From an uncultured Hyphomicrobiales bacterium (GTDB taxonomy: Bacteria; Bacteroidota; Ignavibacteria; Kapaibacteriales; UBA2268): a stretch of DNA of 64,000 nt. The DNA lies in contig CAZSHX010000004.1 in NCBI GenBank assembly GCA_964606895.1, positions 26,789 through 90,788 of the forward strand. Direction: 5' to 3'. The notes beneath the pieces are model-generated. The model did no database searches. It worked only from the letters and a program-made list of their open reading frames with translations, and was not told where the DNA came from. Below are positions 9,793 to 55,161 of the stretch, in pieces. Numbering within the stretch: position 1 is the stretch's first letter; each line of letters opens with the position of its first letter. Made by a program: the position numbers and the translations under genes.

Positions 9793-12700
9793 TTAGTTAT
9801 GAGAACTTCCGTTAGTCTTTTTCCCATGACCATTTCCATTGCCATTTTTATGTTGTTTCAATAAACCGGCTACTCTTGCGGCTTGAAGTGCAAAGGTTTC
9901 AATCTTTGCTTCAATCACCTGAGGATAAACGTTTCCGTCGGTCTCAATAGTCAGGAAAGGAATATTTGTTTTTCCATTAAAAATAATCGGCATTTTGTAA
10001 TCCGGGTCAACCATTTGCCTTGTTTTTTCGACAGCCTCTGATTTCAGTTCGGGCATGATACAAGCTTCAGAAACCCTTGTTGGCATACAGCCGAACGGTC
10101 CAAGGTTGATAATACCGCAATAATGGTCCAGTCCTTCGTAAAGTGCCGTACCGATAGTCAATCCCGGTTCCCCTTTGTAATCAAGCGGAACAATATGCTT
10201 GCTATGGTCAAGTAAAGGTTTAATCTTGGTTAGATGGTACTCGTAATAATTACTTTTCACCAAAGCTTTTTTAATTCTTCTTTCGGCATATTCAATGTAG
10301 AAATCTCTGATGTATCTTTCTAATCTGTTTCTCCATGATACTTCGGCTTCCAGAAGTCCGATTTTTATAAGATAATCAACATACTTAATCCATTCAGAAA
10401 TATAAGCATCTTTAACAACAAATCCTTTTTTAGCAAATTGCTTATTCAGATATTTGTGCGAAAAATGGTCCCTTCTAACGAATATTTCTCCGCAAAGAGC
10501 AATGTAGTTTGATTCATGGATTGGAATCCTTGCAGGAATTTTCTTGATTTCTTTTGAAAATTGTGCTATATGCTTGTACAAATGGTCAGGATCGGAAGCA
10601 AATTTATCTGTAAGTATCCTGAATTGCTCATTAAATACATCCATTCCTTTGTCAGGGTCAACCGAATTTGCCATAATGGCTGAACGAATATCGTCAAGAA
10701 CATCGGCAGTTATAAGTGCCTGCATTCCTCTTTTAGAGAATTGAACACCAAGACCTGCATACCCGTCATCTGTGGTCAAAATAAGAACAGACACATTCTT
10801 GTATTTCTTTCTTTTAATTAAATCTCTCAAGAAGACAGGATACTGACCTAATCTGCAATTTCCTGCACTCTGAACATTAAAGAAAGCGATTTTCTGAACG
10901 CCGTCCCATCTATTTTCAAGATAATCTATAAGTGCTCCTGAGCATAAAATAAGCGGAAGACACTCTTTGCCTGTGGCAACCGTTCTGCCGTATTTCAAAA
11001 TATCGTTATTGCCTTCGGGTAAAGCAATTGCATTGTATCCTAACGTTCTAAACGTTGCGGCAAACATTGCGGCACTCAAATCACCCATCGAAGGAACAAG
11101 AATTGTTACGCTTGGGTCATCGAGCGGAATTTTTTCATTATCTGATGTATAGTAATATAATCTGTCAGTATCAAACTTGACAGTTGCCATGTTGAATTCA
11201 GAATTATCAGGGTCATGGATATTTGCAGATAGTTTTCTGTAGTTATTAATAATATCCAAAGCCGCATCAATTCTTGTATTGATACCTGCATCTGCAGTAT
11301 GACCATCGAGTTCCAAAGTCAGTGATGGTTTGGTTGCCATGATATTTCTGAAAGTAGAAATAATCATCGAATCGGGTCCGCAAGAGAAGTTGGTTATATA
11401 GGTGGCAAACAACTGGTCGTTGTTTTTGACAATATTCGCAACCTTTAAAATCTTCTTTCCGCCTTCCCAATACATATTATCTTCAATTTTCTCGTGGCGG
11501 TAGTCAAGCATATCGTAAGGAATAATATAAACACCTCTGGAAGCGAATTTCTTAGGTATTCCCTTGTTTGTAGTCTCCGTAAATGAGTTATATGGTCTTC
11601 CGACAAGAACCATAGCCATTTCTTCAGGATTAGCCGCAAGGAACTGTAAAAATTCTCTGCCGATAGTAAATAATTCGGTCTGATAGGTTTCCTGCATTTT
11701 AACTGCAAATTCGTAAGCTTCTTTTGCCGCAACTGCATCATTAAATCCCATTTGTGAGGCTATTTCAACAAATTTCACCGATTCGGCACCAAAACCGCTT
11801 GCAAAGTTCAATGCAGGAGCAAGAATTTTATCATTGATATTGAAATCTTTAAAAGCCTGTTTTAAATAGAATGGCTCGGTTATGACGAAAACACAGGTGG
11901 AATTGAAATCTATTCTGTAATGCTCTTCTTCATTGACGTGCATTTCCAAAAGGTTAGGCACGAATATGTAATCAGTATTTTTTTCTATTAAGTTATGGAA
12001 CAAACCCAAAGAAATCTGTGCCGGATAGCAGAATGAAGTCATTTCACGCTCTAATCCTTTTTCATCCACTTTATCGGACAATACAACCCGCATGCCCAAT
12101 TTTGTAAAGAAATTATAATATAAAGGATATAAAGTGTGAGTATGGAATGATTGGTTAATGCCCACCGTTGGTGCATTTTCTGGAAGTTCGGCGGCAGGTG
12201 CATACTTATTAAACGTCATATCATGACGAATTTTTACGAAGTCAAATTGGTCAGCTTCAATCTTTTTATTATTGAGCAAATTATAGTATTTATTGCATGC
12301 TCCGCCAAAAGGATGAACCTTGCCCTGAATCTCAATCATATTGATTGGGCATTTTATGTCGCATTTTTCTTTGCCACCGGCACAAATAAATGGTTTGCGG
12401 TTGATTGCTTCTCTTTCGGCAAGTTCTTTCATCGAATATTCTTTAGGTTTCATTAATCCTAAATCAATTTTATCGGAAACTTCCAGAGCAACACCAAAAG
12501 CACCCATAAGTCCGGGTTCAGGAGGGACAATAATTTCTGTTCCTGTCAGAGCCGCCATAGCAATCGGAATTGCTTTGTTGTAGCAAACACCACCCTGCAT
12601 AAATACTTTTTTGCCAACCTGACGATTACCTTTAACTCTGTTGTTGTAATTCATGCAGATAGAATAAACCAAACCTGCAACAATATCTTCACGGCTGATA

Positions 12701-14142
12701 TTTTCGTGTAATGCCGTTTTAATGTCTGAACTGATGAAAGCGGCACACTGGTCACTGAAATTCGGAGGAGACATTGCTTTTAATGCCATTCCTTCAATTT
12801 CAGTTACGGGTATTCTCAGTGATTCATAAGCTGATTCTTCAATAAAAGAGCCCGTACCTGCAGAACATGCTTCATTCATTGCATAATCCGAAGGTACGCG
12901 ATTTATGATATATGTATATTTTGCATCCTGACCGCCAATTTCGAAAATCGTATCAACCTCAGGGTCAAAATAAACTGCGGCTGTAGCATGGGCAACTATC
13001 TCGTTAATAATGCCATCGGTTAAAGCATGCAAACCTGCAATATGTCTGCCTGAGCCGGTTGTGCCTACCCCGATTATTTTAATATCTTCGGGTATTTGCT
13101 TTAATAATTCCTCGTAGCATTTTTTTGCGGCTACAATCGGATTCCCGTGAGTATATAAGTAAATTGAGCCTAATATTTTCTTGTCATTTTTTCTAAGAAC
13201 AACAGCTTTGGTTGTAGTAGAGCCAACATCCAATCCAAGGAGACAAACATCACCGTCTGAGGCTTTTCCTTTTTCCAAAGTTTTGAAACTGACTTTATCG
13301 GTGAAGTTGATTATTGGGTCAAGAAAAACAAATGAACTTTCTTTTTCTCTGTAAATATCATTTAAATTATCGAATTCCTTAATCTTATTTTTTGTTCCGT
13401 AAATTGCGGCACCTAATGCTTCAAAATAATTTGCTTCATTCGGAATATTTGAATCTTTAACGAATTCCTGAAGATATTTCATAACTGTATGATTTTGAGT
13501 GACACCACCCACAATCATAACTTTGCCGTCTTTTACTTTTTTTAGCAATTCAGAAGCTTTTTCTGCCATCATTGATGATAAACCTGAAATCACTTCACCC
13601 TTTGGTACTCCTTTGTTCAAAGCATGAGTACAATCCGATTTGCAAAATACCGAACATCTTCCGGATACTTTAAAAGGTTCTGTATCGCTGGCGATATCTT
13701 TAACTTCTTCGATATCAACATTCATTCTTTTGATTTGCTGAAGGAAAAACTCGCCGGTTCCGGAAGCACACTGATTTTTGGTTATAACATCCGAGATTTT
13801 ACCATGGTCGTCAAGGGTATAGATAAGAAATGTTTCGCCGCCTAAACTGGCAATAGCTTCATAATGTTCATTGTTTTTGTTTACAAATGAAAAAGCATGT
13901 TCGGTTGCTTCTGACTCCGAAATTTTCGAAAAGTTAACAAGATTTCTGAATTTTCTGCCTGTAACAACAACAGGGAAGAATTCCTTATTGAACTTTAATA
14001 GATTCTCATGGAAAACCTCTTTTGGATTACCATTGTGAGCTAAAGTCAGATTGTCAACTATTTTTATCTCATCTTTATTTTTTTCAATTTTTACAAAAGA
14101 TACGGAGGAGGCTCCAAGGCAAACACCTACAACATGATTCAT
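9793..14142 (-). CDS. Giant fusion protein: two BadF/BadG/BcrA/BcrD (HgdC-type) activase ATPase domains plus an HgdB/DUF2229-like dehydratase component
   Basis: 1449 aa. Two actin-fold ATPase modules: VGVCLGASSVSF...IGGETF, and LLGLDVGSTTTKAVVL...IGGQDAKYTYI...VFMQGGVCYN. These are followed by about 850 aa that are Cys-rich (CAGGKEKCDIKCP) and resemble the accessory and D-component domains of CoA-substrate-specific enzyme activases. Confidence 0.65.
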   Translation of the reverse strand: MNHVVGVCLGASSVSFVKIEKNKDEIKIVDNLTLAHNGNPKEVFHENLLKFNKEFFPVVVTGRKFRNLVNFSKISESEATEHAFSFVNKNNEHYEAIASLGGETFLIYTLDDHGKISDVITKNQCASGTGEFFLQQIKRMNVDIEEVKDIASDTEPFKVSGRCSVFCKSDCTHALNKGVPKGEVISGLSSMMAEKASELLKKVKDGKVMIVGGVTQNHTVMKYLQEFVKDSNIPNEANYFEALGAAIYGTKNKIKEFDNLNDIYREKESSFVFLDPIINFTDKVSFKTLEKGKASDGDVCLLGLDVGSTTTKAVVLRKNDKKILGSIYLYTHGNPIVAAKKCYEELLKQIPEDIKIIGVGTTGSGRHIAGLHALTDGIINEIVAHATAAVYFDPEVDTIFEIGGQDAKYTYIINRVPSDYAMNEACSAGTGSFIEESAYESLRIPVTEIEGMALKAMSPPNFSDQCAAFISSDIKTALHENISREDIVAGLVYSICMNYNNRVKGNRQVGKKVFMQGGVCYNKAIPIAMAALTGTEIIVPPEPGLMGAFGVALEVSDKIDLGLMKPKEYSMKELAEREAINRKPFICAGGKEKCDIKCPINMIEIQGKVHPFGGACNKYYNLLNNKKIEADQFDFVKIRHDMTFNKYAPAAELPENAPTVGINQSFHTHTLYPLYYNFFTKLGMRVVLSDKVDEKGLEREMTSFCYPAQISLGLFHNLIEKNTDYIFVPNLLEMHVNEEEHYRIDFNSTCVFVITEPFYLKQAFKDFNINDKILAPALNFASGFGAESVKFVEIASQMGFNDAVAAKEAYEFAVKMQETYQTELFTIGREFLQFLAANPEEMAMVLVGRPYNSFTETTNKGIPKKFASRGVYIIPYDMLDYRHEKIEDNMYWEGGKKILKVANIVKNNDQLFATYITNFSCGPDSMIISTFRNIMATKPSLTLELDGHTADAGINTRIDAALDIINNYRKLSANIHDPDNSEFNMATVKFDTDRLYYYTSDNEKIPLDDPSVTILVPSMGDLSAAMFAATFRTLGYNAIALPEGNNDILKYGRTVATGKECLPLILCSGALIDYLENRWDGVQKIAFFNVQSAGNCRLGQYPVFLRDLIKRKKYKNVSVLILTTDDGYAGLGVQFSKRGMQALITADVLDDIRSAIMANSVDPDKGMDVFNEQFRILTDKFASDPDHLYKHIAQFSKEIKKIPARIPIHESNYIALCGEIFVRRDHFSHKYLNKQFAKKGFVVKDAYISEWIKYVDYLIKIGLLEAEVSWRNRLERYIRDFYIEYAERRIKKALVKSNYYEYHLTKIKPLLDHSKHIVPLDYKGEPGLTIGTALYEGLDHYCGIINLGPFGCMPTRVSEACIMPELKSEAVEKTRQMVDPDYKMPIIFNGKTNIPFLTIETDGNVYPQVIEAKIETFALQAARVAGLLKQHKNGNGNGHGKKTNGSSHN

Positions 14143-21541: not shown

Positions 21542-22033
21542 TTACTTGTTTAATGCTCTTTTTAAAATCACAATTGATGTCAGGAGTTCATTTTCATTCA
21601 GGTAGCTTGTCGGTCTGATGCGGATAATTCTTCTTCTGCCGGCAACTCTTAGTTTGATAAGTCTGAAGGAACTTTTTACATTTATTATTCTTTCCCTTCC
21701 CAAAGCTATCCTTTGGATTTCATGCAGTCCATATTTTTTTTCTTTGAAACGGGATTTGAAAATAATGAAATCCTTGCCAACGATAATTGATGCTTTTTTA
21801 TAATAATCCACCATTAAGCTGATACCCGTAACCACTATAAACAGTGCCAGCAGAATAACCACAGGGTCTTTGAAAGTAATCGTCAGTGTTCCTTCGTCAA
21901 TCGAACCTTTCAGGAAACTATAGAGCAAAAAGGCTATAAAGTAAGCGACGATGAACTGCCAGTAAAAATCAAGCCTGCGAAAAAACTCTTCATGCCTTGG
22001 CTTGGTTTCGGTTTTTGAATGTGGTGCTTGCAT
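21542..22033 (-). CDS. Small membrane protein, possibly of the bacterial PH-domain (YdbS/DUF304-like) type
   Basis: 163 aa. Two N-terminal TM helices, then a basic soluble domain (RIALGRERIINVKSSFRLIKLRVAGRRRIIRIR). Confidence 0.3.
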   Translation of the reverse strand: MQAPHSKTETKPRHEEFFRRLDFYWQFIVAYFIAFLLYSFLKGSIDEGTLTITFKDPVVILLALFIVVTGISLMVDYYKKASIIVGKDFIIFKSRFKEKKYGLHEIQRIALGRERIINVKSSFRLIKLRVAGRRRIIRIRPTSYLNENELLTSIVILKRALNK

Positions 22034-22127
22034 AATCTTTTCGGGTTAATCAGAAAAATCATTAATAATTAATTCGATTTCTAAAACTCAAATTTAATAA
22101 AAATAATATCATTTATTCAAAATAAAT

Positions 22128-23228
22128 TTACAAAAGCCATTTTAATATTTCCATAGCAGTTTCCATTGCCGCATTTGGTTTCCCGAGTTCTTTTGCTGAA
22201 CTGCCTATCAGAGCAAGTTCCGCTGTATCAAACAGGTATTCGTTAAGCAAGTCGGGGAGCACTTCTTCAATCTCTGAATCGGCTACCATTATTGAAGCTC
22301 CTTTTTCCTGAAGCAGTAAAGCGTTGTGTTCCTGATGATTATTTGCCGCATTCGGAAATGGAACAAGTATTGAAGGTTTGCCCGTAACGCAAAGCTCTGC
22401 GATTGTCGTTGCACCGGAACGGGCAACAACCAAATCCGCAACAGAATAAGCCCCTGCCATATCATCAATAAAAGTCAATGCCTTTACATTTTCCGGCAAA
22501 TTCTCCGGAATTTCAAAGTTTTTGCCGGCTTGCCAAAGGAACTGAACTTTTCCGGAATCCATTCCGGCATAAGTTGTTTGCACAGCTTTATTTATAGAGC
22601 GGGCTCCAAGACTTCCACCAAAAACGAGTACTGTTCTTTTGCCGGGACTGAGTCCGAATTTTTTGAGAGAATTGGCTTTTGATACAGGATTTAAAATATC
22701 CTGCCTGACAGGATTACCAACAAATCTCAATCTGTTCTGCAAAGGATGGGGGAAGTATTCGTTGCTGTCCTCGAATGCGGTAAAAATCACTTCGGCTTTT
22801 GAAGATAGCATCCGAATGGTTTTCCCGGGGATTACGTTGGATTCCATCAGGAACAGCGGCACGCCTGCTTTGGCGGCGGCATTTCCAGCAGGATAGCTTA
22901 TATATGCTCCGGCACAAATTACTCCATCCGGTTTGAATTTTTTAATGATGGAACGGCAAATAGCAGTTGACCGCATTATTTTAATTGGCAAAAGCATTGT
23001 TTTCAGCGACAAAATGCCTCCAAAACCTGAAATCGGCAAATTATGAAGTTTATAGCCGAGATCGGGAACAACTCTGCCTTCGATTCTGTTCGAATTTCCA
23101 ACAAATTCGGCTTCATATTCGCCGTTTGTTAATTTCGATATTTGCTCCAAAACTGCAAGAGCAGGAAACAAATGCCCTCCGGTTCCTCCTGCGGCCACCA
23201 AAAGCCTGACTTTTCTGTTAATTACCAT
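22128..23228 (-). CDS. murG: Undecaprenyldiphospho-muramoylpentapeptide beta-N-acetylglucosaminyltransferase (MurG)
   Basis: LLVAAGGTGGHLFPALAV (N-terminal G-loop), VLVFGGSLGARSIN, ARSGATTIAELCVTGKPSILVPFP, HQEHNA. Confidence 0.85.
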   Translation of the reverse strand: MVINRKVRLLVAAGGTGGHLFPALAVLEQISKLTNGEYEAEFVGNSNRIEGRVVPDLGYKLHNLPISGFGGILSLKTMLLPIKIMRSTAICRSIIKKFKPDGVICAGAYISYPAGNAAAKAGVPLFLMESNVIPGKTIRMLSSKAEVIFTAFEDSNEYFPHPLQNRLRFVGNPVRQDILNPVSKANSLKKFGLSPGKRTVLVFGGSLGARSINKAVQTTYAGMDSGKVQFLWQAGKNFEIPENLPENVKALTFIDDMAGAYSVADLVVARSGATTIAELCVTGKPSILVPFPNAANNHQEHNALLLQEKGASIMVADSEIEEVLPDLLNEYLFDTAELALIGSSAKELGKPNAAMETAMEILKWLL

Positions 23229-23360
23229 ACTTTGTACCTGAAAATCTAATTATTTTAAAAGATTCTAAACTCCAATTTGCAAGTTAACAAAATCCTGTCA
23301 TAAATTGTAACTTTGATAAATATTTTTTGATTTTCCGGAATGAATCTTTCTTTTAGTATT

Positions 23361-23989
23361 TCAAACCCTTACTTTGTAAATGAAATTCAGCATCAGTAAA
23401 TTTGGGGTATAGTCAAGATTGCTTCCGCCCAAAAGTGGTAATCCCGTTAAAAGTCTTCGGCTAATTGACACGGAATAATTATCATCTATCGTATAGTAAA
23501 AACTACAGCCAATATCCATTGAATTGTATTTATCGTTTGAGCTGAACAGCATCCAGCCAAAATGCAATGAAAATCTGAATGGAGTATTCACTTTCCCCAA
23601 ATAGAATTTGAGGACTGTAGAAATTCCCCATTGTCCATAATATTTATTTGTATATTTTATATAATTATTGTAAGCTTCGTCATCACTCTTTTTCTCAGAT
23701 ACCCAATAATGCCCGATAACCTCCAAAGCAAATTTATGAGATTTTGTGAAAGGTAATTCCAAACCATAATTTAATGCAGGACCAACAGAAAAGAGTGACT
23801 CCCAATGATCATAAGAACTACCTGTTGTCATCCCCAAACCTGTGATTGCAATTATATCCACACCACTCTTAACCCCAAGAACCGTATCTCTTTGTGTTGC
23901 CGTTGTACTGTCTTTCTCTATTGCAGAACAGCAGAAAGAAGAAAGCAGGAAGATAAGTATTAGGAATATTACTTTGCTTTTTTTCACTT
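23361..23989 (-). CDS. Secreted hypothetical protein, paralog 1 of a tandem family
   Basis: The likely start is GTG at 23989 (VKKSKVIFLILIFLLSSFCCSAIEKDSTTATQRDTV), matching the N-termini of the two upstream paralogs. The ORF-track start at 24041 overlaps paralog 2 and is probably over-extended. Confidence 0.55.
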
Positions 23990-23994
23990 TTTCC

Positions 23995-24690
23995 TTATGG
24001 TAAGAAATTAAAATTATAACCCAATGAAACAAGAATGACATTTGTTGAATAAGTAGTTACGTCAGGATCTATCTTTGCTGAATTACTGACAAAGCTATAA
24101 GATGAATTTAAATATAAATTTCCATATAATTTCAAAGTAAAGCCAAAACCGCCTTCTAACATAAAAGGAGGCAATGAGCCAAACTTTATAAAAGGATAAA
24201 GAATACCTCCAAAATCTATCGGGTAATATTTACACACAATTGAATGAAGCGATCTGATGGAAGGGTCGCTGTTAATTTTAACAACATAAGTATAGTATAA
24301 GAACTCAAAACCAAGCATTCGTTTTCCATGATTTTTAACAAATAGTTCCAAACTACAATTATAAAACTCAGCATTATTTTGAGGAAAGAAATAACCTTGT
24401 CCATTAACTTGGTCGTTAAAATGCCACCCGCCGCCAATGTTTATTACCAAATGACTAAGAAAGGACAAACTTCGTAACTTATTTTTGGAAACTGAAGTAT
24501 CAAAAGGATCCCTTACTTTCTTCAACTTGGCACCCTTTTTTGTTCTCAAAAGCATTTTTTCGGAATCCTTCTTAACCGCAGGAACCGTATCTCTTTGTAA
24601 TGCCGCTGTACTGTCTTTCTCAACTCCAAAACAGCAGAAAGAAGAAAGCAGAAAGACAAGCATTAGGAATATTACTTTGCGTTTTTTCAC
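23995..24690 (-). CDS. Secreted hypothetical protein, paralog 2 (intact)
   Basis: 231 aa. MKKRKVIFLMLVFLLSSFCCFGVEKDSTAALQRDTV signal, RTKKGAKLKKVRDPFDT, GGGWHFNDQ, and a C-terminal ...LVSLGYNFNFLP. Confidence 0.6.
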   Translation of the reverse strand: MKKRKVIFLMLVFLLSSFCCFGVEKDSTAALQRDTVPAVKKDSEKMLLRTKKGAKLKKVRDPFDTSVSKNKLRSLSFLSHLVINIGGGWHFNDQVNGQGYFFPQNNAEFYNCSLELFVKNHGKRMLGFEFLYYTYVVKINSDPSIRSLHSIVCKYYPIDFGGILYPFIKFGSLPPFMLEGGFGFTLKLYGNLYLNSSYSFVSNSAKIDPDVTTYSTNVILVSLGYNFNFLP

Positions 24691-24697
24691 TTTTTCC

Positions 24698-25477
24698 CTA
24701 TGGTAAAAAATTTAAATTATAACCCAATGAAACAAGAAAGACGTTAGTTGAACAGCTTGGTGCATAAATATTCATCTTTACTGAATTTTCTATATAGTGA
24801 TATGAGGAATTAAGATATATATTTTTATATAATTTAAAAGTTAATCCGACTCCCCCTTCAAGTGTAAACGGGAGGATACCAAATTTAACATAAGGATAAC
24901 AATATCCTTTGAAATAATCGAAATAGTACTTAAAGGCAAACGAATAAAGTTCAGGGTTGGCATTTTCTGTGTGTAATGAATGATTATTCATGTCTTTAAA
25001 CCTTGTGTCGTTCGTATTTATATATCTAAATTATGAGAACTCTATTGCTAAGCCTCGTTTTAGCAATGAACCCAATAATATTTCTAAATTTATCATGTAA
25101 CAAAAATTGTCATTGTAAAGTAGAATATTGTTACCGGTATTTGGGATTTGGTCATTGAAATGCCAGCCACCGCCAAAGTTCAGTACCAAATGACTAAGTT
25201 CGGATAGACCAAATGACCTTTTTTTAAAAGTGGTATCAAAGGGATCACGAGAGGTCTTTTTTAAATAAGTAGTGTCAAAAGGATCCCTTACTTTCTTCAA
25301 CTTGGCACCCCTTTTTGTTCTCAAAAGCATTTTTTCAGAATCTTTCTTAACCGCAGTAGCCGTATCTTTTTGTGTTGACGCTGTACTGTCCTTCTCAACT
25401 GCAAAACAGCAGAAAGAAGAAAGCAGGAAGACAAAAGCAACAATGCTTAATGCAACTGTTTTTTGGCAATTTTTCAT
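24698..25477 (-). pseudogene. Paralog 3 of the same family, interrupted by a single in-frame TAA (25031..25033)
   Basis: ORFs 25031..25477 (the N-terminal part: signal, RTKRGAKLKKVRDPFDT, GGGWHFNDQ) and 24698..24991 (the C-terminal part: ...LVSLGYNLNFLP) are in the same frame. Read-through gives ...AIEFS*FRYINTNDTRFKDMNNHSLH..., which aligns with the EFLYYTYVVKINSDPS segment of paralog 2. Confidence 0.55.
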
Positions 25478-25749
25478 AGCGACACTTATTTATTGAGAAA
25501 TATATTTTTATTCAAACAAATTCTTTATTTAAAGTCAACTATCTTTTTTTATCCGTCTAATGAAATATTTCACTAATTTTTCGTCGTCATTTTTCCTAAA
25601 CACATATTACGAAAAAAACAATACTAATACAAATATTATTTTTGATTTTGGTCGTTGGAAGATTTTCTTCGGGTGTGGGATATTGATGTCTGAACTGGGA
25701 TTTCAGGGATTTTGGGGATTAAGAGGATTTAAGAGAAGTTATTCTTATC

Positions 25750-25782
25750 AGATGTCCTACATCTGGCAGATGTAGGACATCT
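25750..25782. repeat. Perfect 15-bp inverted repeat with a 3-nt spacer
   Basis: agatgtcctacatct-ggc-agatgtaggacatct. It sits in the roughly 900-bp intergenic region between the paralog array and ssb. Confidence 0.9.
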
Positions 25783-26389
25783 TTCCAATATATCCTTGAA
25801 AATCCGTGCAATCCTTTAATCCTAACATTGACAAGCCAAAACCAAAAATAGGATTTTGAAAATCGAATAAAAACTGACAAATAGGAAAAAAAATTAAAAT
25901 GGAACTTATAGCAGAACTTAATTCTATGAGGACAAATTAAATTTTTGCCAAATATTATTAATATTTTAATCGTAAGGTAGAATAATTCCCCCAGTTCTTT
26001 GTAAGGATTTGTACTGTCTTAGCATCAGATTTATTTTGATTCTTTAGTATAAACATTGTTTGTAATTAACAATGCGACACCATTCTGCCAAATCTCTTCA
26101 TTTACATATCAATGTCCTAAATGGCATTAATTTTATTTCAAAATTGTAACGAAAAACAGAAGGAATGTTGCATCATCAATTGATAAAGCAATTCCTGCCG
26201 AAGGCGGGCTCTCAAAATAGAAAAACCCTTCAGTTTTTTTACGAAAATGAATTTTCTTTTATCTTTTTAAAAGGAAATTCATTTTTTTCTTTTTTATTCA
26301 TTAACTTCTCATTATATTTACCATAGTTCCAGATAGTACTTTTGATTTGAATAATTGAAGTTTATTGATTTGTTGTGAGAGGGATTGAT

Positions 26390-26872
26390 ATGTCAAGGAC
26401 ATTGAATAAAGTAATGCTTATCGGCAACGTTGGAAAAGAGCCTGAATTGAAGTACACACCAAGTGGTATTCCTGTTACTTCATTCCGGTTGGTTACATCC
26501 GACGTTTGGAAGGACAGGGACGGTTCTCATCAGGAGTCTGCCGATTGGCACTCGGTTGTAGCGTGGCGTGGATTGGCTGAAATTATTAACAAACTTGTAA
26601 AAAAGGGCTCCCGTGTTTATATTGAAGGAAGACTTCGTTCAAGGTCATTCGAGGATAGAAGCGGGATGAAAAAACATGTCTGCGAAATTATTGCTGACAA
26701 TATGCTCCTTTTGGATTTACGAAAAGGATACAGAGAAGAAGGTGTTGATGAGTTCGAGAAACATCTCTCAGTCGAAGGACCTTTGGATTATAATTTGGAT
26801 TTGGATTCAAAATTTTCATCTTCATTCGACGATGAACTGAATTCAGATTTAAAATCTGACTTTAGTTTTTAG
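26390..26872 (+). CDS. ssb: Single-stranded DNA-binding protein
   Basis: MSRTLNKVMLIGNVGKEPELKYTPSGIPVTSFRLVTSD...WHSVVAWRGLAE is an OB fold. The acidic C-terminal tail ends ...DFSF. A GAGGG ribosome-binding site lies upstream of this ATG. The ORF track starts 15 nt earlier. Confidence 0.85.
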   Translation: MSRTLNKVMLIGNVGKEPELKYTPSGIPVTSFRLVTSDVWKDRDGSHQESADWHSVVAWRGLAEIINKLVKKGSRVYIEGRLRSRSFEDRSGMKKHVCEIIADNMLLLDLRKGYREEGVDEFEKHLSVEGPLDYNLDLDSKFSSSFDDELNSDLKSDFSF

Positions 26873-26966
26873 GAATTCATCGGTTTTCCCGATTTCTTTT
26901 GTCTTTTTTTGTAATTATTCTTAATTTGCAAAAGCCCTTTTCGGGCTTTTCGTTTATTTATTTATT

Positions 26967-27926
26967 TTGAAAAGTATTATGCAAAATCACAGAAAAAATG
27001 AGATAAAGGTTGGACTTGTTTCGCTTATGGCGATTATTCTTCTCATTATTGGTATTACTCTCGGTAGGGACTATAGTGTCTCGGTCTCTACTCAAACTAT
27101 TAAATTTCGTTTTCCGAATTCCGGTGGAATAACCTCTTCAAGCCCCGTTGTTGTTAATGGTGTAAAGCGAGGTTCCGTTTCTTTTGTAAAAAATGATAAA
27201 TCTTCCGTACTCATCGAAGCAACAATTGATGATATCAGTGACCTCAGGCAGGATGTATCTGCAAAAATAACAATTCTTGAGATTACCGGCGGAAAGAAAA
27301 TTGAAATTAATCCGGGTAGTAAAGGTGATGTCTTTAATGTCAAGAACGAAATTCCCGGTTTTACTTCCGCTGATTTATCCGATTTGGTTTCTATCGGCGG
27401 CGAGATGGTAGGCGATTTGAAAGTTCTTTTGAAAAAACTTGACACTATTTCTACATCATTAACCGGTTTACTCAAGGATGGAAAATTTACCGGACAGATT
27501 AAGCAAATTGTTACAAATGCTGATGTCCTGATATCTGATGCCAGGAATCTGCTCGAAAACAACAAAACCGGATTGAGTGCTTCTTTGAAAAACCTTAATG
27601 TGATTAGTGAAGATGTAAAAAATATGCTCAAGAAAGATGAACCTAAGATTGATGAATTGCTCGCAAAGCTTGACAAAGCACTTGTAACAGGTCAGTCTGT
27701 TCTCGGCAAGGCAGATGTCAGCCTTGAAACAGTTGACGTACTACTTAAGGATTTAAAAAGCATAACTAATGAAATTAAAACAGGTAATGGATTTGTTTCG
27801 AAACTGCTTTATGACAAAGGTACCGCTCAAAAACTTGATTCAACTCTGGCAGGCTTAAATGAGCTTGTAGCTTTTATCAAGCAAAACGGTGTGAATGTTA
27901 ATGTACGTCTTGGAACCAGACCTTAA
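26967..27926 (+). CDS. MCE/MlaD-family protein
   Basis: N-terminal TM (VGLVSLMAIILLIIGITLG), then an MCE domain (IKFRFPNSGGITSSSPVVVNGVKRGSV), then a long helical C-terminal region. Confidence 0.65.
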   Translation: MKSIMQNHRKNEIKVGLVSLMAIILLIIGITLGRDYSVSVSTQTIKFRFPNSGGITSSSPVVVNGVKRGSVSFVKNDKSSVLIEATIDDISDLRQDVSAKITILEITGGKKIEINPGSKGDVFNVKNEIPGFTSADLSDLVSIGGEMVGDLKVLLKKLDTISTSLTGLLKDGKFTGQIKQIVTNADVLISDARNLLENNKTGLSASLKNLNVISEDVKNMLKKDEPKIDELLAKLDKALVTGQSVLGKADVSLETVDVLLKDLKSITNEIKTGNGFVSKLLYDKGTAQKLDSTLAGLNELVAFIKQNGVNVNVRLGTRP

Positions 27927-30528: not shown

Positions 30529-31173
30529 TCATAGAATAGAATATTTAATCAATGCTTTGGATTTGAAAAGTATATAGGTCTCAGTATTAGGTTTGACATT
30601 ATAGGTTACTCTTTTAATGATTCCTTTGCCTGGTGTAATGTAAAACTCTAATTTCAGTTTAGGAGAAACAGCTTCATATTTATAGCAGAAAAATGTTCCT
30701 GCAGAAGTACTGACAACTATACTGGTTTGGATTACAGTAATTTGGAAAGTTTCGTTGAAGTCGGGTATAAAGATTGAATATTTATCGTTTATATTGCAAG
30801 GATACTTAAAGAATAGTGAATTCACGAAAACACCATCATTATTTTTGTAAGTTACATAATATCCATCGGTCGAATTACTCGAGAAATAGGAATTGTTGGC
30901 ACTATTTGAAAACCATTTTGTAGCGGAAATTGTTGTATCAACAGTTATGGATTCATGCAAAGTATCGAAAGCAACTTCACTTTGATAGTCAGGGTCGTAT
31001 TCCACATCTTCATAAGTCCAACTATTGCCGATTTTCAAAGGAATAATCTCCTGAGACTTCGCTGGCGGTGGAGTATCGGTAGTTCCGGCACAGGAAATAA
31101 GCATAATGGCAACTAATGCTAAAATTACAAATCCGGTTAAACCGGAGGAAAAATATTTCTTATTCGTTGCCAT
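30529..31173 (-). CDS. Hypothetical lipoprotein
   Basis: 214 aa, VILALVAIMLISCAGTT lipobox. It overlaps the upstream T9SS gene by 14 bp, so the two are probably co-transcribed. Confidence 0.45.
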   Translation of the reverse strand: MATNKKYFSSGLTGFVILALVAIMLISCAGTTDTPPPAKSQEIIPLKIGNSWTYEDVEYDPDYQSEVAFDTLHESITVDTTISATKWFSNSANNSYFSSNSTDGYYVTYKNNDGVFVNSLFFKYPCNINDKYSIFIPDFNETFQITVIQTSIVVSTSAGTFFCYKYEAVSPKLKLEFYITPGKGIIKRVTYNVKPNTETYILFKSKALIKYSIL

Positions 31174-32458
31174 TTAATTTTACAAATTTTCCAAAATGAG
31201 TACTACTGCCATTAATGATTTTATAGAAATAAATACCGGCTGAAATATCTTTTAAATCGAAACTTTTTGATAAATCAGGCATCACTTCATTAGCAATTGT
31301 TTTGCCAAAAATATCAGTAATTGTAATTTTTGAATTAGTCAGCAAATTTTTATTAAAGGAGAATTCAATGTAATCAGAACATGGATTAGGATAGACAACA
31401 ATGTCATTCCCGGAATCAGGTATTTCATCAACATCAAGGATAACACCGCCTTTCCTGAAAACGGACATTCCGCCCCATGATGTACCAATCCACTTGTTAT
31501 TGAGTTTATCTGCGGCTATTGTCCATACCCTGTTTGCTGAAAGCAGAGAATTGTTGATGTCGAAAGTCTCCCATTTATTTCCATCAAATGAAGTAAGTCC
31601 TGAAATTGAACCGAACCATAGTATTCCGTTGCTGTCCAAGGCTATAGCAACCACCTCATTTGAAGGCAGACCTGCATTCAGGGAATCGAAAATGGTCCAT
31701 TTGCTTCCATCGAATTTTGCAACTCCGCCGCCTAAAGTTGCAAGCCACTTGTTGTTGCTTTTATCAACAAGAATTGAACGTACCCGGTTGTTCGGGAGTT
31801 CTGAATTGGATGTGTCGTAAACGGTTAGCTTTTTCCCGTCATATTTGAGCAGTCCACTGCCGTCAGTGCCAATCCAAATAATTTCATCTTTATCCTCGGC
31901 AAAGGAAATGATACACTTCCGTTGGATTTGAGTCAGCAGAGAATCGAAATTATGCCATTTCCCGTCAAATTTAAAGAATCCATCGCACCAGCTACCTGCC
32001 CAAATATTCTGTTTGGAATCCACAAAAGCTGAAAAGATATAATTATTACTAATTGCAGAATTTGATTTATTAAAGGACATCCATGACGAGCCGTCAAACT
32101 TCACTAACCCGTTTTCCATGGTGCCTGCCCATAGATTGCTTGCTTCATCCAATTGCAGAGAGAAGACCGTATTGTCAGTGAGACCAGAATTCTTAGAATT
32201 ATAAGTAACAAAATGCTTGCCGTCAAATTTGGCAATACCTCCTCCGTTGGTTCCTATCCACTTATTTAGATTATTATCAATAATAATACTCCAAACAACA
32301 TCGTGGGGAATCATTGAATTGCGGGTATTGAAAGTCACCCAGTCATTAATCTGTGAATAAAGCAGATTGACCGAAATAAAAAAGAAGGCAAAAGCTATTT
32401 TCCAAATATCAATTTTGGTTTTCATTAATAAACCTGTATCAAGAAACAACCAATACAA
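31160..32458 (-). CDS. Beta-propeller repeat protein (two-component-regulator-propeller-like repeats) with a T9SS C-terminal sorting domain
   Basis: 432 aa. Repeats W(I/L)GT..GGG(I/V)(A/S)KFDG..W. C-terminal VVYPNPCSDYIEFSF...GIYFYKIINGSSTHFGKFVKLNGNE. Confidence 0.65.
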   Translation of the reverse strand: MYWLFLDTGLLMKTKIDIWKIAFAFFFISVNLLYSQINDWVTFNTRNSMIPHDVVWSIIIDNNLNKWIGTNGGGIAKFDGKHFVTYNSKNSGLTDNTVFSLQLDEASNLWAGTMENGLVKFDGSSWMSFNKSNSAISNNYIFSAFVDSKQNIWAGSWCDGFFKFDGKWHNFDSLLTQIQRKCIISFAEDKDEIIWIGTDGSGLLKYDGKKLTVYDTSNSELPNNRVRSILVDKSNNKWLATLGGGVAKFDGSKWTIFDSLNAGLPSNEVVAIALDSNGILWFGSISGLTSFDGNKWETFDINNSLLSANRVWTIAADKLNNKWIGTSWGGMSVFRKGGVILDVDEIPDSGNDIVVYPNPCSDYIEFSFNKNLLTNSKITITDIFGKTIANEVMPDLSKSFDLKDISAGIYFYKIINGSSTHFGKFVKLNGNE

Positions 32459-33474: not shown

Positions 33475-34581
33475 TTATTCCTGCGTCAGTTGATTTTTCA
33501 ACTTGCTGATTAATGGAATAGGTGTGGGATCAACTCCATTTAAAATTGCCATAAAATAACTAACCCAATCACCGAGGTAAATCAGGTCGAACATTCTGGT
33601 TAATAAATTTTCGCCATCACCTTTGATTTCAATAACATGCTTCACACTGCTTTCGATTAGCGAATGAAGTGCATTAAAACGTATTTTTACTCTTGGATGG
33701 TCATAAGGGTCACGCATGAAAATCACTGAGAATCTCGTTGTTAAATCTTCAGGATAACTCCATGAATTTATTTCGTTATGATTCATTTCGGGAAGTAAAT
33801 TGCCGAAAGCAAGTTGTTTGGCATTTTCCTGAATCTGACAGCGCCATCTGAGGTTTACCGAGTCCAGTCTTTCTGCAGGAGAATAAATAACAGGAACCGA
33901 ATTGTAGAGCTTTTCAGCCAGTTGGAATGCAACATTTCTGCCGTTTTCCAAATCGGTATAAGCATCGGCTTTGATAAAAAGTAAATCCAAAAGCTCATTC
34001 ATGCAAAATTGTATATTTGAATCAGTTTTGAATGCAGAGCTTTTTTGAAGAAGATAAAGCATTGGAACAAATGAATAACCAAGAGCACATCTTGGCTGTA
34101 ATCCACCAGGAACTTTTATAACAGGATAGCCATACTTGAGGGCAAGCTCTTCGAGTTTGCCGCCTGTGGTGATGCAAATAATTCTGTCTGTATATTTTCG
34201 GGCATCTTCAAATGCCGAGATAGTTTCTTCAGTATTCCCCGAATAGGAACTTGCAATAACATTCGTATTTTCATTTATCGAAGCAGGAACTGAGTAGCCC
34301 CTGTTAGTTCTGATTAAAAGATGATTTGCCCAGGGTGTTGCACTGCAGAAAGAAGCAAGCAGGTCGCCACCGATTGCAGAACCGCCCATGCCGAGAATCA
34401 GGTATTCATTTGATACAGGCTTACTGTTGAAACCCGCGGCATCTTTGCCGATTTCAATTGCTTCCTTCACCTGCATAGGAAAATTCTTCAATATTTCGAA
34501 CATGTTTTGAGAGTCTGATTTTTCAATATTCTCTCTGTAAATCTTAGCCATTATTAAATCCTTAAATAACAATTTTAACAT
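33475..34581 (-). CDS. SIS-domain bifunctional phosphoglucose/phosphomannose isomerase-like protein
   Basis: LILGMGGSAIGGDLL (SIS motif), IASSYSGNTEET, ITTGGKL. About 340 aa if it starts at MAKIYRE. Confidence 0.6.
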   Translation of the reverse strand: MLKLLFKDLIMAKIYRENIEKSDSQNMFEILKNFPMQVKEAIEIGKDAAGFNSKPVSNEYLILGMGGSAIGGDLLASFCSATPWANHLLIRTNRGYSVPASINENTNVIASSYSGNTEETISAFEDARKYTDRIICITTGGKLEELALKYGYPVIKVPGGLQPRCALGYSFVPMLYLLQKSSAFKTDSNIQFCMNELLDLLFIKADAYTDLENGRNVAFQLAEKLYNSVPVIYSPAERLDSVNLRWRCQIQENAKQLAFGNLLPEMNHNEINSWSYPEDLTTRFSVIFMRDPYDHPRVKIRFNALHSLIESSVKHVIEIKGDGENLLTRMFDLIYLGDWVSYFMAILNGVDPTPIPLISKLKNQLTQE

Positions 34582-53634: not shown

Positions 53635-55161
53635 CTATATTTTAATGAATTTACTTACTTGATTACCTACCCACACAAAATATACCCCCGACGGCAAATC
53701 CGAAACGTCAATTCTTTGTCCTCCGCTGGCGGAGGTGTCTGCGGAGCAGACGGAGGTGGACTCTTCCTGCCCAAACACATTGTAAATCCTAAGAACTGGA
53801 TTCCTCACTTCGTGCGGAATGACGGTTAGGTTGAATGATATTACAATAAAATCTTCTGCAGGGTTCGGTTGAATGGAAAAATTATCCAAGGCCTTAATTT
53901 CTTGTTGCTCATTTATCCCATCGGGTTTCTCGATTTCTATGGCACCAATGGAACGTGATGTAATTGAAAATTGATTGCCGTAAAAATCGGTGGTTGGCTC
54001 TGTCTCGGTCATGCCCTTTCCTAAAGCAGGACTGCCCACAACGAGATGAAAGTCATTGCCCGAACCATCAGCGAAGATTTGCGTTCCTGAGCCATAAATC
54101 ATTGGATTTTGGTCCTTTATGGCATCCAAATCCGGAGTATCCCAATATGGTCCTTTAAATGACGGATTCGTTATGCCATAATAAATATTTTTCCCGAAGC
54201 TTGCCGCCCCCGCCGGCTGTATTCCTCCATTAATATAAGCTGAAGAACCAAAAGCAAATATATTATTTTCAATTCTGTTTCCTGATAATGACGGGTACAG
54301 ACTGCTCGTGGTAAGAAAACGCATGGTTGCCTGTCCGCAATTGTAAAAAGTATTGTTAATCACTTTGCAATCAACAGCCGAAGACAGAGCTAATCCCCGA
54401 TAGCCGCCAATGATTATGTTAGAATAAAATTTAAGATTTTTGACTTCAAATTTATCTTCGGGGCAGTAGAACTCTGCACCGGTGTCGCCACCAAGTTCAA
54501 ACGCAACCCATGGGTCTTTCGAGGCGTTAATGAAAATATTTCGTTCCATGGTAATATTGGATGCACCGCCCTTGATATGCCCCCCGGTCAGGCAATTTTC
54601 AAATCGGTTAAGGCGTATAATCCCATTCCGGCAAACATTATAATCCATAGTTGAAAGTCCCGACATATCTTTGAAAATGCAATTCGTCACTTCGAAGCTG
54701 TCCACACCGCCAAATTTAAAAGCGGCTATTGCTTTCGGGTCAGTCGCATTTGAAAAGACGCAACTGTCCACCTTGATAAATTTTGACTGAGTTTCACAGC
54801 TACCGCTATTGTCAACGCTGAAGAGCCTTCCCGGATATTTGGCATTACCTTTGAAATTCAGATTAAGGAACTTAATATACTCACAACTCATAAACTGCCA
54901 GCAACCTGAAATATCTATTTCATCATTTTCAAACCGGCTGATAACTATCGGGTTGGATTTATTGCCCTTTAATTTGGATATACCCTGATAGCCGCCGTAA
55001 GAACCAGCATGCAGAAAAACCGTATCGCCCGGATGAATTGCCACGGCATTCACAGCGGCTTCAATATTCGGATACGTCTGCCCGGGACCAAGGTGGACAT
55101 TGCCCAAGCAAGACATTGAAAATAAAAAGATAGACAACAATGCTATAAATAAAGCTTTCAT
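53635..55161 (-). CDS. Right-handed parallel beta-helix (pectate-lyase-fold) protein with a T9SS C-terminal sorting domain
   Basis: 508 aa. Signal peptide. Repeated NxxF(x)N/G-rich coil motifs (INNTFYNCGQ, IENNIFAFGS). C-terminal IQPNPAEDFIVISFN...GVYFVWVGNQVSKFIKI. Confidence 0.6.
   Translation of the reverse strand: MKALFIALLSIFLFSMSCLGNVHLGPGQTYPNIEAAVNAVAIHPGDTVFLHAGSYGGYQGISKLKGNKSNPIVISRFENDEIDISGCWQFMSCEYIKFLNLNFKGNAKYPGRLFSVDNSGSCETQSKFIKVDSCVFSNATDPKAIAAFKFGGVDSFEVTNCIFKDMSGLSTMDYNVCRNGIIRLNRFENCLTGGHIKGGASNITMERNIFINASKDPWVAFELGGDTGAEFYCPEDKFEVKNLKFYSNIIIGGYRGLALSSAVDCKVINNTFYNCGQATMRFLTTSSLYPSLSGNRIENNIFAFGSSAYINGGIQPAGAASFGKNIYYGITNPSFKGPYWDTPDLDAIKDQNPMIYGSGTQIFADGSGNDFHLVVGSPALGKGMTETEPTTDFYGNQFSITSRSIGAIEIEKPDGINEQQEIKALDNFSIQPNPAEDFIVISFNLTVIPHEVRNPVLRIYNVFGQEESTSVCSADTSASGGQRIDVSDLPSGVYFVWVGNQVSKFIKI

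Follow-up and report, generated by a model that had tools for sequence, protein, structure and literature searches.

The closest known systems to the locus described here are the small 8-stranded outer membrane (OM) beta-barrels, such as the OmpA transmembrane domain/OprF-N, OmpX, NspA, OmpW, and PagL (PF13505). In Neisseria, the Opa proteins are multicopy 8-stranded OM barrels that exchange sequence by recombination; the opa genes are dispersed in the genome and are turned on and off via CTCTT pentamers repeated in the DNA that encodes the leader. Paralog families with conserved leaders are also known in Borrelia (the Erp/OspE-F "upstream homology box"), Mycoplasma (vlp/vsp), and Helicobacter (5' conversion of hop/bab). 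These families are large, consist of lipoproteins or large porin-like OM proteins, and belong to host-associated pathogens in which variation has been documented. PorP/SprF proteins, FadL-like barrels with 14 strands, are paired with type IX secretion system (T9SS) cargo bearing a type B CTD (PMC9143113).

The window, i.e., the whole 64,000-nt stretch of DNA analyzed, carries three consecutive co-directional ORFs on the minus strand, here called C, B, and A (Table 1), which were found where the original prediction had placed them. As a multicopy set of putative 8-stranded barrels with recombination between genes, the array resembles the Opa system, but it is arranged in tandem, has no functional repeat tract, and has a copy inactivated by a nonsense substitution. 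With the Borrelia, Mycoplasma, and Helicobacter families it shares near-identical 5'/signal peptide DNA, divergent mature regions, and recombination between paralogs; it differs from them in comprising three genes, in originating from an environmental metagenome-assembled genome, and in showing no variation. In the explanation that we favor and consider probable, three genes for small Sec-exported 8-stranded OM barrels would form a lineage-specific tandem array of old paralogs in an uncultured Bacteroidota/Kapabacteria-like host, A coming from a sister family recognizable only at the profile level. The 5' ends, including the last codons of the preceding gene and the 7-nt spacer, would have been homogenized recently as the head-to-tail units underwent gene conversion or exchanged DNA unequally; in strand 3 of the C barrel, a Tyr codon would then have mutated to TAA, the nonsense substitution leaving a fixed pseudogene.

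Table 1. Coordinates of the array and its elements in the window
Feature	Position	Strand	Description
Gene C	24698..25477	-	Leads the array and runs from ATG to TAG; predicted Sec signal peptide, Lys-rich linker (~70 aa), and putative barrel body
Gene B	23995..24690	-	231 aa, intact; begins with GTG 7 nt past the C stop; predicted signal peptide, Lys-rich linker (KLKKVRDPFDT), and putative barrel body (GGGWHFNDQ ... LVSLGYNFNFLP)
Gene A	23361..23987	-	Intact, 208 aa counted from the GTG at 23987, 7 nt past the B stop; leader as in B/C, no Lys-rich linker, predicted 8-stranded barrel body of other sequence
Homogenized junction tract, copy 1	23871..24050	-	From ~18 codons before the TAA of B, across GGAAAAA and GTG, to codon ~40 of A
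Homogenized junction tract, copy 2	24574..24753	-	From ~18 codons before the TAG of C, across GGAAAAA and GTG, to codon ~40 of B
B/C 5' block, B copy	24482..24659	-	Leader and Lys-rich linker; 89% identical to 25257..25434; dS, 0.19
B/C 5' block, C copy	25257..25434	-	Partner of 24482..24659
In-frame TAA of C	25031..25033	-	Followed by T; opposite Tyr in the alignment with B (TAC) and with the relative P0008; predicted barrel strand 3
Linker motif duplication within C	25229..25288	-	RDPFDTT(Y/F)xKK; 12-residue insertion relative to B in the alignment
Gene-free region	25478..26374		~900 nt, upstream of C; unique to C, outside the repeat

The motifs first attributed to all three proteins are only partly common to them. 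The signal peptide and EKDST..QRDTV are present in A, B, and C, whereas KLKKVRDPFDT, GGGWHFNDQ, and the LVSLGYN(F/L)NFLP C terminus are found in B and C only; the description of the three as paralogs with the same motifs was thus wrong for A. B and C are 56% identical in amino acid sequence over their full length when C is read through its stop. A shares sequence with B and C only in the first ~40 codons (signal peptide, EKDST..QRDTV..VK), beyond which it has a different sequence that ends in ...LLMLNFIYKVRV and to which B could not be aligned pairwise. The GTG at 23987, which sits in the same type of stop-GGAAAAA-GTG junction as the start of B, is a more likely start for A than the ATG at 24041 given by ORF callers. 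The array promoter presumably lies in the gene-free region upstream of C. Promoter and terminator scans performed no better than on shuffled sequence, and an Rfam search of positions 22000 to 27000 returned nothing credible. A perfect palindrome is located at 25750 to 25782 in the gene-free region.

Near-identical DNA around the starts had been reported, and this was borne out. Each of the three genes has a single exact copy of the leader 22-mer CTGCTTTCTTCTTTCTGCTGTT, for a total of three (chance expectation, 0), the two copies of the B/C 5' block form a direct repeat over 178 nt, and a second direct repeat (23867 to 24166 and 24570 to 24869) is 80% identical over 300 nt. The longest identical run between B and C is 36 nt and includes the 30-mer ggatcccttactttcttcaacttggcaccc named in the original prediction. 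Between -63 and +116, a stretch that crosses the stop, the spacer, and the start, the two junction tracts are 83% to 97% identical per 30-nt segment, with the peak of 97% at the stop/GGAAAAA/GTG. Two further matches were discarded: a fourth leader-like match (34341 to 34362; 3 mismatches), which was taken as a chance match and lies in a 368-aa ORF unlike the array, and a weak tblastn match to B/C at 54015 to 54179 on the plus strand, which is spurious and lies in an antisense frame with a stop.

Synonymous divergence in the array is mosaic. Between B and C, dS is 0.19 in codons ~12 to 69 and 1.0 to 2.3 elsewhere, and in codons 12 to 40 all three gene pairs have a dS of ~0.10 and a dN of 0.11 to 0.17, the 5'-block dS estimates being based on few sites (2 to 7 synonymous differences); the deficit of synonymous differences is significant (Fisher p = 3e-4). 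Since the low dS in codons 12 to 40 stands beside a dN of this size, the near-identity there reflects recency and not protein constraint. The leader DNA is near-identical and yet the bodies are saturated, which suggests recent homogenization of the 5' ends only. The low-dS tract is not bounded by coding features but spans the stop, spacer, and start, as in concerted evolution. Together, the mosaic dS and the identical tract crossing this junction point to homogenization of the leaders via gene conversion. Of the two origins initially offered, recent duplication or gene conversion, the latter is therefore favored, whereas a recent duplication of whole genes does not agree with saturated bodies, that of A being unrecognizable pairwise.

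Alternatively, the 5'-block near-identity could be due to selection on the nucleotides, for instance if each junction held a regulatory RNA, a structured mRNA element, or an element for translational coupling. The conserved tract does center on the junction where identity peaks, and the GTG starts of B and A, 7 nt past the upstream stop and behind a purine-rich spacer, would fit coupled translation. However, the B/C block is 89% identical ~200 nt into the coding region, well past any ribosome-binding element, and it is common to B and C from codon ~16 onward even though the start region of C differs from that of B. In addition, the substitutions in the 5' block are mostly nonsynonymous (dN/dS of ~1 or higher), as predicted by recent homogenization followed by drift, and such selection is in our view unlikely.

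The assignment to an OM protein family, also part of the original prediction, gained support from structure prediction. The AF2 model of A is an OM beta-barrel with 8 strands (pLDDT, 66; pTM, 0.60). The AF2 model of B, made from a 3-row alignment, was unusable (pLDDT, 34), and a barrel fold of B and C is suggested by a moderate profile link to the A family: in hhalign, the B/C-family profile (4 sequences) matched the A-family profile (2 sequences) with 84% probability and an E value of 7e-6 over 121 barrel columns. When A, B, C, and their relatives were scanned against Pfam and NCBIfam, no family scored above threshold. Of these proteins, C alone (C-terminal half) scored with PF13505 (OMP_b-brl; 14.1 bits, E = 0.054; gathering threshold, 28.7 bits), A, B, and the relatives having no score at all; neither A, B, nor P0006 had an NCBIfam match at E values up to 10, and a PDB search with the B/C profile gave none at E values up to 10. 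The array proteins thus resemble the PF13505-type barrels without belonging to them at the sequence level, and they also differ in that B and C have an additional 55- to 70-residue Lys-rich N-terminal extension with RDPFDT and in that the C termini do not end in Phe. A ends in IYKVRV, and B, C, and the relative P0009 end in NF(N/D)FLP, so that A and B/C lack a terminal aromatic residue, while the relatives P0004/P0006 have the canonical YYKF.

By inspection, the signal peptide consists of an n-region (KKRK/KKSK), a VIFL.L.FLLSSF core, and C-x-A/G at -3/-1 before (V/I)EKD, and signal peptidase I is predicted to cleave after CC(F/S)(A/G). An OM location of the three proteins is probable. A lipoprotein or surface export signal was considered for FCC..EKD and rejected: the lipobox [LVI][ASTVI][GAS]C fails, position -1 of LLSSFCC being F or C, and the relatives P0006, P0008, and P0012 also have no Cys there.

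The failure of A and B to align pairwise past codon 40 could also mean that A is unrelated to B and C and gained their leader by illegitimate recombination (module shuffling), and the small profiles indeed scored only a 14-residue N-terminal motif. Against such grafting, the barrel bodies do align when the 4-sequence B/C profile is used, and P0004/P0006 from another organism, 35% identical to A, already bear a similar leader (LILIFLL...FG(F)VEKSES...NDSTT..DT), which indicates that this leader type is native to the A family. We find this origin of A quite improbable.

The third copy was described as carrying a single nonsense codon with the downstream frame kept, and this is correct. The TAA is the sole interruption of C; the frame runs 13 codons on into a 97-aa ORF (24698 to 24991) that corresponds in alignment to the C-terminal half of B. 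As interrupted, C would yield a 148-aa product with the signal peptide, the linker, and ~2.5 strands, and the orphan 97-aa ORF has no signal peptide. Stop codon reassignment was ruled out: B, C, and A end in TAA, TAG, and TGA, respectively, and the neighboring genes use ordinary stops. The same TAA is present in ENA assemblies ERZ4223250 and ERZ4201038, which differ from the window by 1 to 2 SNPs elsewhere; the assemblies covering it are near-clonal, and "fixed" here means fixed in one sampled population. No intact C-like protein was found among ~15 billion public proteins by word-index, exhaustive, and profile searches, and a 36-nt pattern across the stop, with that codon free to vary, had no match in metagenome_contigs and so added no further population. 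C resembles an ordinary pseudogene and is presumably nonfunctional, in agreement with the simple decay proposed for this copy.

On/off or antigenic variation had been proposed for the array as well. In a contingency locus of this kind, the TAA of C would be one switch state or a silent donor cassette. Such a locus would suit a multicopy family of probable surface-exposed barrels with DNA exchange between copies, and the leader-coding DNA is CT-rich with an imperfect 7-nt periodicity, superficially similar to the CTCTT repeats in the opa leaders of Neisseria. However, the periodic tracts comprise only 2 to 4 imperfect copies (78% to 86% matches; TRF), and a leader 20-mer is invariant in every assembly covering the array (exact matches: L001, 3; L003, 3; L004, 1; L005, 3). 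No perfect simple-sequence repeat or other hypermutable repeat, no long convincing inverted repeats bracketing the promoter region, no convincing invertible promoter, and no alternative allele among the assemblies or in public data were found. The stop arose by base substitution and not by a frameshift in a repeat, and it lies ~240 nt past the homogenized block, where B and C are only ~50% identical, which makes repair by conversion unlikely. A nonsense substitution in a UAA-U context in such a region is no readily reversible switch. Phase or antigenic variation is therefore unsupported, and we regard it as very unlikely. That the TAA is a sequencing or assembly artifact and C an intact third gene is hardly credible, since three independently assembled data sets differing at other positions share it and the site is outside any homopolymer or repeat, although the ENA contigs have low coverage (~4.7 to 5.5 by the cov values in their names) and the C-B dN/dS is not raised downstream of the stop (~0.38) compared to upstream (~0.34), as would also be expected if the mutation is recent and the B-C branch long.

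The family is tiny, with ~5 relatives in public data; P0010 and P0011, obtained by exhaustive search, were rejected as low-complexity repeat proteins. Searched with the B/C alignment, genome_contigs and metagenome_contigs yielded no relatives, and none of 80 murG loci of GTDB species representatives contained a relative of A, B, or C, the closest MurG among the representatives scanned being 51% identical (Candidatus Kapaibacterium), in keeping with the host proposed here. Relatives of both barrel types are located in apparent operons with T9SS cargo genes: P0006, P0008, and P0012 abut or overlap Por_Secre_tail genes, and the cargo beside the relatives has the type A tail (PF18962). This adjacency (3/4) is only suggestive, because ~10% to 20% of the called genes in those few loci have that tail. 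The window contains T9SS cargo and BamA-like genes, which likewise fits that host, yet no cargo gene adjoins the array.

An OM barrel gene next to a T9SS cargo gene, as in these three relatives, is reminiscent of PorP/SprF. However, PorP/SprF proteins are of ~300 aa with 14 strands (PMC9143113), and the array proteins are of ~200 aa, 8-stranded as predicted, and have no NCBIfam or Pfam match; the cargo neighboring the relatives is of type A and not type B, and the array itself lacks adjacent cargo. By analogy with the 14-stranded PorP/SprF barrels that anchor type B cargo, the A and B/C families might represent an undescribed class of small barrels (~200 aa, 8-stranded) that are dedicated partners of type A-CTD cargo and could act as anchors, receptors, or assembly factors, a reading that we put forward as speculative and rather doubtful.

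Starts copied by conversion and one dead gene are nothing unusual. Alone, the array is of little import: a clean small case of concerted evolution confined to the leader/junction of old tandem paralogs, together with a recent pseudogene, from a Kapabacteria-like lineage with poor sampling. Its practical use is in annotation, where the three hypothetical proteins may be named as probable small OM beta-barrel proteins, with C marked as a pseudogene, and where GTG can be entered as the corrected start in two cases. Of wider reach is only the apparent translational coupling of the relatives, of both barrel types, to T9SS cargo genes. If the small barrels were indeed T9SS partners, the array, with its homogenized leader and expanded, putatively periplasmic Lys-rich linkers, would be a lineage-specific elaboration, and if the coupling holds across more genomes, they may constitute an unrecognized accessory component for type A cargo.

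Genes C, B, and A lie on the minus strand between ssb and murG and are transcribed in that order (see the table below). The C/B and B/A junctions are identical, TTACCATA(A/G)GGAAAAAGTGAAAAAA, and this conservation of stop codon, GGAAAAA, and GTG argues for GTG as a likelier start of both A and B than those in the public gene calls, which place A at an upstream ATG (24041; 226 aa, 47-nt overlap with B) and B at Met10 (222 aa; window 24664-24690). Each gene contains exactly one copy of the leader 22-mer CTGCTTTCTTCTTTCTGCTGTT, with 0 copies expected by chance; a fourth match at 34341 (3 mismatches) is within an unrelated 368-aa ORF. Searching the entire window in all six frames revealed no further array copies. 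A and murG are separated by 132 nt, and consensus promoter and terminator scans at the array were uninformative.

Features of the array, of the window, and of the contigs carrying relatives
Feature	Location	Strand	Details
ssb	26375-26872	+	
Gene C	25477-24698	-	ATG start, TAG stop
Gene B	24690-23995	-	GTG start 7 nt past TAG of C; TAA stop; 231 aa
Gene A	23987-23361	-	GTG start 7 nt past TAA of B; 208 aa
murG	23228-22128	-	
In-frame TAA of C	25033-25031	-	
Direct repeat	24482-24659 and 25257-25434		178 nt, 89% identity
Direct repeat	23867-24166 and 24570-24869		300 nt, 80% identity
Linker duplication in C	25229-25288	-	RDPFDTT(Y/F)xKK, tandem
Gene-free region upstream of C	25478-26374		~900 nt, belonging to the array alone
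Palindrome part of that region	25697-25782		
Fusion gene	9793-14142	-	1449 aa
Cargo gene and downstream gene	30529-32458	-	432 aa and 214 aa, overlapping
Barrel relatives adjoining or overlapping cargo genes	L094 439-2456; L096 8001-11105; L086 7997-10705		
Por_Secre_tail-only ORF	L096 10938-11105		55 aa
P0008 and transposase gene	L093 1214-2557		~600 nt apart

The direct repeats and the single in-frame TAA of the original prediction are real, and the motifs said to be common to all three proteins are present in B and C. However, A lacks KLKKVRDPFDT, GGGWHFNDQ, and the LVSLGYNxNFLP terminus; it resembles B and C in the first ~40 codons only (signal peptide and (V/I)EKDST..Q(R/K)DT..VK) and differs in sequence thereafter. 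With its stop read through, C matches B at 56% identity. The signal peptide would fit SPase I cleavage after CC(F/S)(A/G); a lipobox reading did not fit, and relatives are without the Cys. B and C also carry an expanded Lys-rich N-terminal linker of 55 to 70 residues. The tandem duplication of RDPFDTT(Y/F)xKK in the linker of C is missing from B, suggesting that the linker is expanding through internal duplication.

None of the Pfam or NCBIfam models exceeded the threshold for the array proteins; the top score was that of OMP_b-brl on the C-terminal half of C (14 bits, E 0.054, below threshold). The relatives of A form a single cluster, P0004/P0006 (35% identity), and an AlphaFold2 model of A based on this alignment was moderate (pLDDT 66, pTM 0.60), with eight long strands. 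An exhaustive search with B and C recovered two distant relatives, P0008 (JGI lake metagenomes) and P0009 (Logan), at ~32% identity, and a profile search added a third, P0012; LSxLSH-x4-GxGxH, YPxVKxG, NxxLNxSY, and an NFL C terminus are common to these relatives. When the four-sequence B/C profile was aligned to the A-family profile with hhalign, the barrel body matched over 121 columns (probability 84%, E 7e-6), and a similar leader, LILIFLL...FGF(V/G)EK.ES...NDS(T/A)T..DT, is already present in an A relative of another organism. On these two grounds, A, B, and C are read as putative old paralogs within a single superfamily of small outer-membrane barrels. The suggested outer-membrane character is thus supported for A by the model and for B and C through the match to the A family, but the model of B itself, with C alone as the alignment, was unusable (pLDDT 34).

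Synonymous divergence (Nei-Gojobori dS on the B-C codon alignment) is a mosaic: 0.19 in columns 30 to 75, 1.1 in columns 75 to 115, 2.3 in columns 115 to 148, 1.8 in columns 149 to 200, and 0.77 in columns 200 to 260. The 5' block has significantly fewer synonymous differences than the rest (Fisher p = 3e-4). In codons 12 to 40, which are common to A, B, and C, dS is ~0.10 and dN is 0.11 to 0.17 for every pair; as the few changes are mostly amino acid changes, identity there reflects recency and not protein constraint. Counting from the GTG, the two junction units are 83 to 97% identical between positions -63 and +116, a tract that takes in the last ~18 upstream codons, stop, spacer, and the initial ~40 downstream codons. 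Since this homogenised tract ignores gene boundaries while the bodies are saturated, the pattern points to old tandem paralogs that underwent gene conversion or unequal exchange. Recent duplication of whole genes, the other origin originally proposed, is not supported, as the bodies are saturated at synonymous sites.

The TAA of C is aligned to a Tyr codon (TAC) in B and is located in predicted barrel strand 3. The base after it is T, and UAAU terminates translation efficiently in E. coli. Thirteen codons on, the frame enters a 97-aa ORF that aligns to the C-terminal half of B. Stop codon reassignment is not indicated, as other genes here terminate with TAA, TAG, and TGA. A sequencing error is rejected: exact-protein look-ups recovered the same locus from other assemblies, and the TAA was read in both of those that cover the site, ENA ERZ4223250 (contig of 12,954 nt; two substitutions relative to the window, outside the array) and ERZ4201038 (4,000 nt; one substitution, outside the array), which cross the entire array with identical structure. 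The Logan sequence SRR12676969 (4,162 nt; no substitutions) ends within B at window position 24535, inside the B/C 5' repeat block (~180 nt), as expected of a unitig assembler at such a repeat. No intact C-like protein was found in the public protein collection of ~15 billion sequences by word-index, exhaustive HMMER, or profile searches, and a stop-spanning pattern with the codon left free had no match in JGI metagenomes. The TAA is fixed in the single known population, to which the statement is confined because the sampled populations are nearly clonal. Repair through conversion is unlikely, since the TAA is ~240 nt past the homogenised block and B-C nucleotide identity there is only ~50%. 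The predicted product of C comprises leader, linker, and ~2.5 strands; a signal peptide is missing from the ORF downstream, and C is classed as a predicted pseudogene.

On/off or antigenic variation, also proposed originally, found no support: the assemblies showed no heterogeneity, and no switch could be recognised, because the repeats in the leader DNA are imperfect (Tandem Repeats Finder; 7- or 14-nt units in two to four copies only), a leader 20-mer is invariant across all assemblies covering the array, and the upstream inverted repeats are short and AT-rich except for one local palindrome. This perfect 16+16-nt palindrome, AGATGTCCTACATCTG c CAGATGTAGGACATCT, forms a 15-bp hairpin (z = -6.1 versus shuffles), occurs once in the window, and adjoins ~2.7 copies of the 9-nt unit GGGATTTCA; the region has no Rfam match.

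Among the GTDB species representatives scanned, the nearest MurG (51% identity) came from Candidatus Kapaibacterium and Bacteroidota MAGs. Array relatives were absent from all 80 murG loci fetched. Type IX secretion cargo and BamA-like genes lie in the window, consistent with a diderm host of the FCB group. The fusion gene elsewhere in the window encodes BcrAD/BadFG-type ATPase domains and DUF2229 (CoA-enzyme activase).

Three of the four relatives have type IX secretion cargo genes as neighbours. In the A family, 27 nt separate the start of P0006 from the preceding gene, whose beta-helix product carries Por_Secre_tail; in the B/C family, P0008 shares the ATGA at its true ATG with the stop of a gene for a Por_Secre_tail protein, and P0012 has a 4-nt overlap with a 760-aa BNR-like gene; P0009, on a short contig, is preceded by a PMT_2/TMEM260-like glycosyltransferase gene. 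The overlaps would imply co-translation, and the arrangement suggests that small barrels and secreted cargo are paired in operons, although it is only suggestive because Por_Secre_tail genes are frequent at these loci (~10 to 20% of called genes). The Por_Secre_tail-only ORF 22 nt past the BNR-like gene may represent part of a cargo gene broken up by a frameshift, a stop, or an assembly error. In one metagenome contig, P0008 is upstream of an IS110-family transposase gene. A known counterpart is found in the PorP/SprF proteins, 14-stranded barrels paired with type B cargo (PMC9143113). The small barrels described here have eight predicted strands, show no sequence relationship to PorP/SprF, and stand beside type A tails, and the array in the window has no adjacent cargo gene. 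We consider it improbable that these barrels serve type IX cargo as dedicated partners. Elsewhere in the window, the 432-aa cargo gene (Reg_prop repeats and Por_Secre_tail) overlaps a gene whose product bears a lipoprotein-like signal (..MLISC AGT) but is unmatched in Pfam, a further cargo-plus-small-partner pair of a different type from the barrel pairs.

In the proposed history, old tandem paralogs would encode small outer-membrane barrels, conversion would keep the leaders and junctions of the array genes alike, and a recent nonsense mutation would have killed one copy, C. The array is an ordinary phenomenon within a very small, unannotated protein family.
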